A stretch of DNA of 64,000 nucleotides from Promethearchaeota archaeon (GTDB lineage Archaea; Asgardarchaeota; Lokiarchaeia; Sigyniarchaeales; SOKP01). How positions within the stretch are numbered: position 1 is the first letter of the stretch; each line of letters starts with the position of its first letter. The notes beneath the pieces are model-generated. The model was not told where the DNA came from and did not search any database. It saw nothing but the letters and a program-made list of their open reading frames with translations. Made by a program: the position numbers and the translations under genes. The stretch spans positions 1 to 64,000 of the forward strand of contig JAHPZJ010000030.1 in assembly GCA_019058245.1 (NCBI GenBank), read 5' to 3'. Shown piece by piece: positions 89 through 3,341 of the stretch.

Positions 89-1006
89 ATGTTCAAAGAG
101 AAATTTAGCGAAGGTATTATAACTGCGAAGCAATTTGATCGAGAAGATATTGAATATATCCTAAAAAAAGGCAATGAAATGATGAAAATCAAAAATTCAA
201 ATCTTCTTCATGGGAAAATTCTAGCTACATTATTCTTTGAGCCATCTACTCGCACTCGTCTTAGTTTTGAATCTGCGATGTATAGACTAGGGGGGAATGT
301 TATCGGTTTTCATTCTGGAGATGTATCTTCAATAAAAAAAGGTGAAACTATTGCTGATACGATAAGAACCGTGGAGAATTATAGCGATTGCATAGTGATG
401 AGACACTCACTTGAAGGAGCTGCTAGAATGGCTTCGAAATTCACAAAAATCCCTATTATAAATGCTGGATCGGGAAGTGGAGAACATCCTACCCAAGCAT
501 TATTAGATTTATTAACTATTACTGAAGAGATTGGACCATTAGATGGTTTGAATATAGGTATAATGGGTGATCTCAAATATGGAAGGACGGTGCATTCACT
601 TTCAATTTTATTATCCAATTTTGATGTAAATATATATTTCATAAGCCCAGAAAGCTTAAGAATGAGAAATCGAGATATAGACTTTTTGCAGCAGCACAAA
701 ATCCAATATAAAGAAATTACAAATTATAGAAAAATATTAAATATATTAGATGTTCTTTATATGACAAGAATCCAAAAAGAAAGATTTGTCGATATTGAAG
801 AGTATGAAAAATTAAAGAATTTCTATATATTTAGAGAAGATGATCTTGATGATACAAAAGATAATTTCAAATTATTACATCCTTTACCTCGCGTTTTAGA
901 AATTTCTCCTGAAGTTGATGCTTCAAAAAAAGCCATTTATTTTAAGCAAACATTTTATGGAATTCCAATGAGAAAAGCTATTCTAGCCGAGCTAATGACT
1001 GATTAA
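89..1006 (+). CDS. pyrB: Aspartate carbamoyltransferase catalytic subunit
   Basis: FFEPSTRTRLSFE carbamoyl-phosphate motif, HPTQ, GDLKYGRTVHS, RIQKER, HPLPR. Confidence 0.97.
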   Translation: MFKEKFSEGIITAKQFDREDIEYILKKGNEMMKIKNSNLLHGKILATLFFEPSTRTRLSFESAMYRLGGNVIGFHSGDVSSIKKGETIADTIRTVENYSDCIVMRHSLEGAARMASKFTKIPIINAGSGSGEHPTQALLDLLTITEEIGPLDGLNIGIMGDLKYGRTVHSLSILLSNFDVNIYFISPESLRMRNRDIDFLQQHKIQYKEITNYRKILNILDVLYMTRIQKERFVDIEEYEKLKNFYIFREDDLDDTKDNFKLLHPLPRVLEISPEVDASKKAIYFKQTFYGIPMRKAILAELMTD

Positions 1007-1039: not shown

Positions 1040-3028
1040 CTATTCAAAAAAACAATCCTTAATAGATATAAACTCTATTTCGGATTTAAAAAGATTTTTT
1101 AACAATTCATAAACTGATAATTCATCTGTATTAATTTTTTCTATAAACAATGTACCTCCATTGATAATTTTTTGAAATTTTTTAAATAGGGATATTCTTT
1201 TATTTATGGAAAGTTTTGATCCACTCCTTATCAATTTTGATGAATATTGATTTCTCTCTTTATTTAATTTTAAACAGCCATTATGCCATGTATCTTTTAG
1301 ATATGAATCATAATGAGGTTGACTGAGAACAAAATTATTACCATTAAGTTGATTTGTTTCCTCAATTAATTCTTTCATTAAAGATAAAACATTAAAGGCA
1401 AATTTCTTACTATTTTCTGTTCTGTCGAGTTCGATTCCACAATGATTAAGGATAGCATCATTTAATCCGAAAAAACTAATAGATTTCAGGGATTTTCTTA
1501 TTAAATCTTCATAATGTTCATTTAGAATTTCTGAACCAATGAATATCCATTGTTTAAGAGAATGCAATTTCTTTATTACCAATTCCTCTTTATAATTAAA
1601 CAATTCAAAGACGGAATTTAACTTATTTTCCAATACTTCTAAAAATCTATCATCATTTTGTTTTGCTACTTCTGATATTCTGTGTAAATTTATTAAAATT
1701 TTATCTAATACAATTATATTATTGTTAATATCAGGTATTTGAATGATAGATGAATTTAACAAATTTTTTCTATTTGAATCGTATAGAAAGAGATCTCCTT
1801 TATTTGTTTCGGCAATATAATATTTCAAAAGACTATCTTTCGAATCCAATAAATACTTATCTGATATATTTGAAAGTAGTAAAGGCCTAACGCGATCTTT
1901 ATTTTGAAGGAACATGGAATTATAGAATTCTGCATCAACCTGAGAATTATTGAAAAAATTTTCAGATGTTTTTCCACTGTTATTGAATCCTAAAGATAAG
2001 TGAGATTTACCATCATTAAAAAGAGTATTGAATCGGAGTAGTTGGGATGATAAAATATTGAAATGGGATGGTTTTATTTTAGGTGAAGCAAAACAAGAAA
2101 GAAAGTAGGTGTTGAATTCTCCTAATAGCAAATCTTCAGAATAAAAATGTTTAAATTGATATAAAATATCTAAAAACTGAGAAATTATATTGTTTAATTC
2201 ACTTCTCCTAACATCATTTTGGAGATTAATTGAATTTTTTTTAGACAAATAATCAATTAGAGTTTTAGTATTAAGGTAAATACTTAATGGTCTTAGACTC
2301 CAATAATTTAGATGTAATAGAGCAATTTCACCCGATAAATATAAGTCAGCTAGATTTTTTGGTAGTAGATTCAATAGTAAAAATTGCTCAGAAACATCAG
2401 ATCCTAGCCTTTTTATTAACGTTTCTGGTGAAAACTGTTTTTCTTTAGAATTAAATAGTTGAAATACTTCAAATGGGGGTGTACCTAATCGAGTTAATCT
2501 GTGTCTAACCTCTTCTAATCCATTTTCGAGTAAAACAACATTAATAAATTCACGCATTAAAGGTGCGGTCATATATTCTATATTTGTTTTAGAAAGCCGT
2601 TCTTCTACTTCATGAGATATTTGTTTAGCTAAATATCGCTCTAAATCTCCCTCATTTACAAGGTATTCCTCAATCTTACTTATATCAAATAATTCTTTAG
2701 AATATTTCGAAGTTCGAATCATTATTGTTTTTTTTTGGTTGTTAAGGATTTCTTCAATAGATAAAATCTTATCAATTATTTTTTCACCTAAAAGTGAAAT
2801 GGAGTATCCCTCATCAGAAGTTATAATTAATTCGCTTTCCTTTAATGAGTTTAAATGAAAAGATAAATTTACAGAAGAAAGATTATGACCTAAAACATCT
2901 TTTTGTAGCTTTGAAAATGATATTGGAGATTGGACATTTTTTAATTTCTTTAATATATCAATTCTAATCTTTTGACCTAAGGTTTTTAACTGTTTTTCTA
3001 AAAGTGATTGATTTTTGTCGGTATCCAA
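1040..3028 (-). CDS. ArsR-type HTH + ATP-cone + degenerate class III ribonucleotide reductase (NrdD)-like protein
   Basis: N-terminal wHTH (RIDILKKL..ISFSKL..NLSFHLNSL); ATP cone (IRTS..FDISKI..TAPLMREFIN); NrdD-like LLPKNLADLYLSGEI and SISFFGLND; no C-terminal Zn ribbon or glycyl-radical motif. Confidence 0.8.
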   Translation of the reverse strand: MDTDKNQSLLEKQLKTLGQKIRIDILKKLKNVQSPISFSKLQKDVLGHNLSSVNLSFHLNSLKESELIITSDEGYSISLLGEKIIDKILSIEEILNNQKKTIMIRTSKYSKELFDISKIEEYLVNEGDLERYLAKQISHEVEERLSKTNIEYMTAPLMREFINVVLLENGLEEVRHRLTRLGTPPFEVFQLFNSKEKQFSPETLIKRLGSDVSEQFLLLNLLPKNLADLYLSGEIALLHLNYWSLRPLSIYLNTKTLIDYLSKKNSINLQNDVRRSELNNIISQFLDILYQFKHFYSEDLLLGEFNTYFLSCFASPKIKPSHFNILSSQLLRFNTLFNDGKSHLSLGFNNSGKTSENFFNNSQVDAEFYNSMFLQNKDRVRPLLLSNISDKYLLDSKDSLLKYYIAETNKGDLFLYDSNRKNLLNSSIIQIPDINNNIIVLDKILINLHRISEVAKQNDDRFLEVLENKLNSVFELFNYKEELVIKKLHSLKQWIFIGSEILNEHYEDLIRKSLKSISFFGLNDAILNHCGIELDRTENSKKFAFNVLSLMKELIEETNQLNGNNFVLSQPHYDSYLKDTWHNGCLKLNKERNQYSSKLIRSGSKLSINKRISLFKKFQKIINGGTLFIEKINTDELSVYELLKNLFKSEIEFISIKDCFFE

Positions 3029-3341
3029 TTTTATACAATTCTCTATAATCTTTTTTTTAATCTACTTAAATAATTAATGTGTCCAAATTTTATTTAAAAA
3101 TTTAGGTGTTTTCGAAGTTATAAATGATTTTAGATAATATGTAGGTGATATGAATCCATACTTTAAAAAAATTAATCTTCTATTTAGATTAGTTTAACCT
3201 GTAAGAATTATAAAAATTGTAATTTAATATTTTTATATATTATAATACTAAAAATTGGATTATTTTTTTTTTAAATTTCAATTAACTTCAATTAAATTAT
3301 ATAATAAATTTTAAATTCTTACTAAAAGTTGACATAGAACA

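Follow-up and report, generated by a model that had tools for sequence, protein, structure and literature searches.

The stretch of DNA considered here, which we call the window, comprises 64,000 nucleotides (nt; positions 1 to 64,000 of contig JAHPZJ010000030.1, assembly GCA_019058245.1) from a Promethearchaeota archaeon of the Lokiarchaeia. Close to its left end, on the reverse strand, lies a gene whose product joins a winged helix-turn-helix (wHTH) to an ATP-cone and to the barrel of an anaerobic (class III) ribonucleotide reductase (RNR), NrdD, from which the catalytic parts have gone; this gene, its relatives and a short DNA box that it shares with two other genes are our subject. A sequence-only reading of the window had described an ArsR-like wHTH, an ATP-cone and NrdD-like segments within an intact frame of 662 codons, a description that Pfam, fold matches and the alignment of start codons bear out, with the cone scoring below its Pfam cut-off. 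The parts of the gene, from its N-terminal end, are these:

1040–3028, reverse strand: the whole gene (wHTH, ATP-cone and dead NrdD barrel)
2765–2989, reverse strand: winged helix-turn-helix, residues 14–88 (DUF7347 / ArsR-like; Pfam PF24038)
2495–2722, reverse strand: ATP-cone, residues 103–178 (Pfam, fold matches and homology to the genome's own NrdD)
2276–2503, reverse strand: hyper-conserved block, residues 176–251 (NrdD dimer and specificity-site helices plus the first barrel strand; predicted dimer interface), from an alignment of 22 sequences
2315–2323, reverse strand: A236-L237-L238 where the HxHD substrate-triphosphate motif would have its HxH; the sequence reads ALLH (alignments)
2282–2284, reverse strand: S249 ('RPLSI') in place of the barrel-strand active-site Cys, C180 in the genome's own NrdD and C125 in T. 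maritima NrdD (alignments)
1736–1741, reverse strand: Q430/I431, site of the deletion of the finger loop that bears the thiyl-radical Cys (alignment)
1307–1321, reverse strand: QPHYD at the site of the (T/Q)PAE substrate-phosphate loop, 'QPAES' in the genome's own NrdD (alignments; P571 and H572 are family-invariant)
1043–1060, reverse strand: C-terminus (…KDCFFE), short of the Zn ribbon and glycyl-radical domain (alignment)

The frame is uninterrupted (662 codons plus stop), and its TTG start lines up with the ATG, GTG or TTG starts of its orthologues; the start codon (window 3026–3028) is TTG or GTG in nearly all orthologues of the genus and ATG in more distant ones (loci L026–L033). At the N-terminus, residues 14–88 pass the Pfam cut-off for the DUF7347 wHTH (38.6 bits against 27.6), with weaker matches to HTH_45, HTH_20 and HTH_5 in the same protein, and the putative recognition helix (about N54–K63) is invariant across the family alignment. 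The cone region has 28% identity with its counterpart in the genome's own NrdD (BLASTP, E 2e-17), with which it shares the basic residues R105, K118, R144, R159, R175 and R180, and the ATP-cones of its relatives score 28–32 bits in Pfam. Residues 445–656 match positions 283–504 of the 562-position NRDD profile (PF13597) at 59.3 bits, well above the cut-off of 26.2, while the protein fails the NrdD equivalog model of NCBIfam (TIGR02487; 71.1 bits against 326.35). The predicted structures agree with these assignments. An AlphaFold2 model (predicted local distance difference test, pLDDT, 76) has class III RNRs as its best Foldseek matches (E 7e-16, TM ~0.5), and a sub-model of residues 95–260 (pLDDT 76.6) retrieves as top fold matches only ATP-cone proteins, namely NrdR, NrdD, cone-bearing NrdB and NrdA (E 2e-3 to 1e-2). 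A profile of the family alignment gave no match at E <= 1e-3 against the PDB sequence set.

That the barrel no longer works as a reductase we regard as close to certain. When the protein is aligned to the genome's own NrdD, which in turn serves as a bridge to the NrdD of T. maritima, 'RPLSI' pairs with 'RPFCQ' and with 'MPYCF' (Cys125), respectively. The sequence-only reading had taken RPLSI for the position of the catalytic Cys; a Cys has indeed been lost there, but it is the second, barrel-strand Cys and not the thiyl-radical Cys of the finger loop. The latter is found in 'QCCRKF' of the true NrdD and in 'SCCRL' (Cys329/330) of T. maritima, and in the dead protein its loop is deleted, the whole stretch from residue 312 to 529 being free of Cys. 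The HxHD and TPAE motifs, whose roles in substrate binding have been described (PMC11226230), are both gone; that the TPAE-type motif reads QPHYD, as proposed earlier, is upheld by the alignment to QPAES/TPAE. The chain stops some five residues short of the position where the true NrdD has its first CxxC and so has neither the four-Cys Zn ribbon nor the RxxGY glycyl-radical loop, just as the sequence-only reading had stated. Proper alignment therefore recovers no catalytic residue: neither Cys is there, nor HxH, TPAE, the Zn site or the Gly loop. Three residues that differ in the true NrdD, H529, C530 and H572 (in NHCG and QPH; window ~1439–1444 and 1307–1321), have become invariant in the family, and may form a new ligand or metal site within the dead barrel.

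The chemistry itself appears to be carried out elsewhere in the genome, where a separate, intact class III system is present. The true NrdD, on contig C25 (712 aa, 429.2 bits against TIGR02487), carries C180, C387/C388, QPAE, the CxxC…CxxC site and RVTGY, and the activase NrdG lies on contig C13 (148.8 bits). Within the window there is no NrdG-like match, in line with the earlier remark that no activase is nearby, and no class I or II RNR (PF02867) was found in the assembly, which is 76% complete. The GTDB family of the source genome carries three NrdD paralogues in all. The third is also dead and has no HTH (602 aa; C13:294833–296641, forward strand, locus L002:1180–2988). It is 42% identical to the true NrdD, scores 194 bits against the 326-bit cut-off and retains the ATP-cone; the CC of its finger loop is deleted and it has no Zn ribbon or Gly loop. 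At least nine further genomes of the family have frames of 596–629 aa for this second dead paralogue. There is, in addition, a stand-alone protein of 143 aa (contig C8:53331–53762, forward strand, locus L022:1477–1908) made up of an ATP-cone and the NrdD linker ('TRIGLPYFDL'); it has no NCBIfam match and, because it lacks a Zn ribbon, is not NrdR.

The dead reductase is an old and well-kept protein. A protein search returned 475 homologues of about 660 aa, the best 120 of which are all ~650–670 aa long with the identical two Pfam domains, under Loki-, Thor-, Hod-, Hermod- and Odinarchaeal labels. Of the 40 genomes from the same GTDB family that our sample of the phylum included, about 38 hold one full-length orthologue (~650–670 aa, 40–68% identity). 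Among the genus orthologues, taken from the genome loci, the ratio of non-synonymous to synonymous substitution (dN/dS, by Nei–Gojobori) is ~0.2 overall, which supports well the conclusion that the protein is functional and kept by purifying selection; a recent truncation is excluded by this ratio and by the breadth of full-length orthologues. Constraint is uneven along the chain: dN/dS is mostly 0.07–0.10 in the ATP-cone, 0.04–0.12 over residues 179–255, 0.05–0.25 in the HTH and 0.19–0.49 in the barrel. The family alignment (22 sequences) is near-invariant over residues 103–251 and least conserved in the middle of the barrel.

The invariant block coincides with a predicted dimer interface. 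A homodimer model (two copies of residues 100–590) passes its controls, with an interface score (ipSAE) of 0.73 against 0.00 for the best control, at least 71% of contacts in common between runs and a partner pLDDT of at least 70; the mark applied is attained by 20 of 30 solved same-chain pairs and one of 23 single chains. The modelled interface includes residues 175–220, 241–246 and 276–295, and the model supports pairing of two chains through the old NrdD dimer interface (residues ~176–250).

The second line of evidence lies in the DNA at the 5' end of the gene, where two features stand out:

3029–3090, reverse strand: putative promoter, an A/T-rich TATA-like element ~26–38 nt upstream of the TTG start (sequence and genus-level conservation)
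3013–3021, reverse strand: the box CCGACAAAA, a candidate operator at +7 to +15 of the open reading frame (ORF; codons NCC GAC AAA A)

The spacing of the TATA-like element suggests a leaderless or near-leaderless mRNA. When k-mers were counted in the 5' regions of 21 orthologues and 21 nrdD loci, the box was the single outlier: CCGACAAAA stands at +7 of the dead-reductase gene in 18 of the 21 loci and ~85 nt upstream of nrdD in 20 of the 21, in the same orientation. Codon 3 is always NCC even though its amino acid varies (T/A/S/P), and both GAC (11% of Asp codons) and NCC (~9–10% of its codon families) are scarce in this genome; the constraint thus acts on the DNA. In two genomes the start codon has shifted downstream and the box is still present, now outside the ORF.

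The same box leads to a third gene. In this genome CCGACAATA occurs 165 nt upstream of orc1/cdc6 (386 bits), and the variant CCGACAWWA is found upstream of orc1, in a conserved setting, in ~17 of 30 genomes of the family. The 3.09-Mb assembly has 10 exact copies of CCGACAAAA, compared with ~15 expected from base composition; promoter-like CCGACAWWA sites in this genome number seven, and three of these belong to the dead-reductase gene, nrdD and orc1. The other seven exact copies of CCGACAAAA we set aside as chance occurrences, being inside ORFs or beside genes that have no connection with nucleotides, namely those for an aldo-keto reductase, a hydrolase, a ribbon-helix-helix (RHH) protein and small ORFs of no family. 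No box with at most one mismatch was found upstream of the second dead paralogue, nrdG or the gene for the 143-aa ATP-cone protein. At all three genes that have it, the box lies 20–38 nt downstream of a TATA-like element, that is, at about the predicted transcription start.

Other families were compared as well. A sister family has inverted CCGACA pairs, 48–60 bp apart, upstream of both the relative's gene and nrdD; there, as in one genus, the box ahead of the gene has the opposite orientation. In a family in which no such protein was found, the box occurs in one of 20 nrdD 5' regions, and that one is off the promoter. Near the nrdD start of another family of the phylum (loci L115–L134), a different 8-mer, GCCGGGAG, which may be either coding or regulatory, is common to 18 of 20 loci, with CGCCGGGAG in 14.

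Taken together, retention of the NrdD fold, loss of its radical and substrate-binding residues and purifying selection are shown or well supported, and we propose, with a probability of about 0.6, that the protein is a dimeric, nucleotide-sensing, DNA-binding regulator, derived from a catalytically dead class III RNR, that acts on nrdD, orc1 and the gene encoding it. The sequence-only reading had already suggested an enzyme scaffold turned (d)NTP-sensing regulator, and our results support that interpretation. We infer the binding of DNA and nucleotide from the strong constraint on the wHTH and ATP-cone and from the 9-mer common to the three genes. In each chain the ATP-cone would read ATP/dATP and the winged HTH would contact DNA, the likely target being CCGACA(A/T)(A/T)A just past the start codon of its own gene, ~85 nt upstream of nrdD and upstream of orc1/cdc6. 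Protein bound at the transcription start would block RNA polymerase, hence our working model of a nucleotide-dependent repressor of these three genes, repression being the presumed direction of control. More tentatively, and with clearly less confidence than in the regulator as such, we suggest a regulon for the start of DNA synthesis, in which one RNR-derived ATP/dATP sensor would bind the CCGACA boxes where transcription of its own gene, nrdD and orc1/cdc6 starts; if true, replication initiation would thus be coupled to the supply of DNA precursors.

Several observations weigh against this proposal. The cone itself (PF03477, residues 103–174) reaches 19.6 bits, under the Pfam cut-off of 25.8, and sequence searches with the cone regions of the dead protein and of the genome's own NrdD returned no ATP-cone alignments, leaving the ligand residues unmapped onto solved cones. 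A single asymmetric 9-mer is unusual for a symmetric wHTH dimer, and no second or inverted half-site within 160 nt of the box is conserved in the source family. The placement of the box relative to the transcription start is weakly founded, since TATA-like strings are common at 27% GC. As NrdD dimers have already been solved, the success of the dimer model may come from structures that the predictor had learned. The conserved adjacency to pyrB, the tail-to-tail neighbour described below, has no explanation in the box, which is absent from the 88 nt that the contig end leaves upstream of pyrB. A shared box, moreover, points to co-regulation and does not by itself identify its binder.

This last point gives room to the strongest of the alternatives, which we consider unlikely: the protein may belong to a replication and deoxynucleoside triphosphate (dNTP) regulon without controlling it, with another factor binding the CCGACA box and the dead reductase acting through protein contacts, for example by serving the working NrdD or the second dead paralogue as a non-catalytic partner or regulatory subunit, or by buffering or sensing nucleotides while tethered to chromatin. 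Such a role would suit a protein whose best conserved part is the NrdD dimer interface (28% identical to that of the true NrdD) in a family with three NrdD paralogues. It sits less well with a wHTH that scores above its Pfam cut-off, evolves at dN/dS 0.05–0.25 and keeps its putative recognition helix invariant, nor does it account for a box that, in two sister families, overlaps or adjoins the gene for the protein itself and is kept despite the shift of the start codon, which is the usual mark of autoregulation. The passing homodimer model likewise favours, as far as a prediction can, a protein that pairs with itself.

Far less probable is an action of the box at the RNA level, where the protein or some other factor would bind the three mRNAs at their 5' ends. 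In that case one would expect what is seen in the source family, a box that in all three genes coincides with the predicted transcription start or closely follows it and is always on the sense strand, but the reversed box ahead of the gene in one genus and in the sister family fits recognition of DNA, and ArsR-type wHTH domains are DNA binders. We give still less credit to a barrel that remains an enzyme with a different, non-radical chemistry: the dN/dS of the barrel half (0.19–0.49) and the new invariant H529, C530 and H572 could be read this way, but every known RNR catalytic and substrate-phosphate motif is lost, the middle of the barrel is the least conserved portion and neither Pfam nor NCBIfam recognises any new catalytic motif. 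A decaying NrdD pseudogene or a mis-assembled fusion, to which only the loss of catalytic parts would point, is refuted by intact frames of equal length in dozens of genomes and hundreds of metagenomic contigs and by the dN/dS of ~0.2.

The regulator that we prefer, a dead reductase turned DNA-binding protein, can be set against several known systems. With class III NrdD (P. copri 8p23/8p28, T. maritima 4coi, S. thermophilus 9d3x, T4 1h78) it has in common a homologous ATP-cone, linker, dimer helices and alpha/beta barrel, and its predicted dimer uses the same region; unlike NrdD, it adds an N-terminal wHTH and is without the finger loop, both Cys, HxHD, TPAE, the Zn ribbon and the glycyl-radical domain. 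NrdR, the RNR-specific repressor of bacteria, consists of a Zn ribbon and an ATP-cone (PMC9110341, PMC12176259). The resemblance lies in the fusion of a putative DNA-binding domain to an ATP-cone and, possibly, in a conserved box in an RNR promoter, probably also at the regulator's own gene. The differences are several: the N-terminus of the dead protein is a DUF7347 wHTH with no Cys cluster rather than a Zn ribbon; the whole RNR body is kept and probably supplies the dimer; and the candidate box is unrelated, single and asymmetric, with a candidate regulon that includes orc1/cdc6. The best-supported model is of a protein that is functionally NrdR-like yet stands outside the NrdR family. Trigger enzymes and pseudo-enzyme regulators such as PutA and BirA, in which an enzyme scaffold is joined to a DNA-binding domain and a metabolite-binding fold controls transcription, offer a more general precedent; here, in contrast, nothing is left of catalysis, and the chemistry falls to a separate paralogue.

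On its other side the gene has a conserved neighbour, and the sequence-only reading was right to place the two convergently:

89–1006, forward strand: pyrB, aspartate carbamoyltransferase catalytic chain, tail-to-tail with the dead-reductase gene (TIGR00670, 367.7 bits, cut-off 236.95)

The tail-to-tail arrangement, at gaps of 4–70 bp, recurs in all 11 loci of the genus and in 17 of 21 wider loci, including longer relatives (~765 aa) from other Asgard families. The upstream neighbour in this genus is a divergent acyltransferase gene; most of the family's other genera have the dead-reductase gene directly after, and codirectional with, the rpoA'-rpoA''-L30e-NusA-S12-S7 cluster (loci L037, L039–L045), a slot that holds EF-2 in many archaea. 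In these same loci ribosomal L44e lies beyond pyrB. At six loci of the ~765-aa lineages (L046, L047, L049, L051, L052, L056), pyrB is divergent from pyrI, with no pyrBI operon, and pyrI is followed by genes for A-type ATP synthase subunits F and A. At L049 the gene for the dead HTH form lies next to the true nrdD, and the two converge.

The longer relatives came to light in an exhaustive search, as a second tier of proteins of 700–890 aa with the wHTH and cone in common. The ~765-aa type retains the full NRDD profile and the four-Cys ribbon, and yet both active-site Cys are missing in all 119 sequences checked, and in about 30 of them the Gly as well. It carries Hel-, Hod-, Frey-, Jord-, Njord-, Odin-, Baldr- and Atabeyarchaeal labels and extends to Methanomethylicota/Verstraetearchaeota and Bathyarchaeia. 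Like the window's form, these Asgard and TACK proteins (e.g. the cluster of Ca. Atabeyarchaeum deiterrae WXG45871.1) have the DUF7347 wHTH, the ATP-cone, the loss of both Cys and often the tail-to-tail pyrB; in contrast to it, they keep the Zn ribbon and the C-terminal domain, with Gly at the old radical position in most, whereas in the window's form these are lacking and the finger loop is deleted. From this comparison it follows that dead, HTH-bearing reductases make up a large archaeal family, of which the window's form represents the most reduced branch. Our literature searches for an architecture of wHTH, ATP-cone and dead NrdD found no description of it; a paper on Tn7 and nrdD attachment sites (10.1101/2025.07.27.667033) was judged irrelevant to the gene.

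Public databases mostly name such proteins 'anaerobic ribonucleoside-triphosphate reductase', and the tally of 'anaerobic RNR' genes for Asgard and TACK genomes is inflated as a result; if our proposal is true, a widespread archaeal regulator has been mislabelled as an enzyme. To our knowledge, archaea mostly lack NrdR, and the control of dNTP synthesis in archaea is poorly known. With binding as proposed, the protein would be a clear case of an entire enzyme body retained solely as the dimerising, ligand-sensing chassis of a transcription factor. The shared box defines a testable regulon of three genes (the gene itself, nrdD and orc1/cdc6), which would link precursor supply to replication initiation. 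In eukaryotes, G1/S promoter-box circuits also join RNR and CDC6/ORC1 genes, and the archaeal regulon, if true, would be their functional counterpart in the archaeal group closest to eukaryotes.

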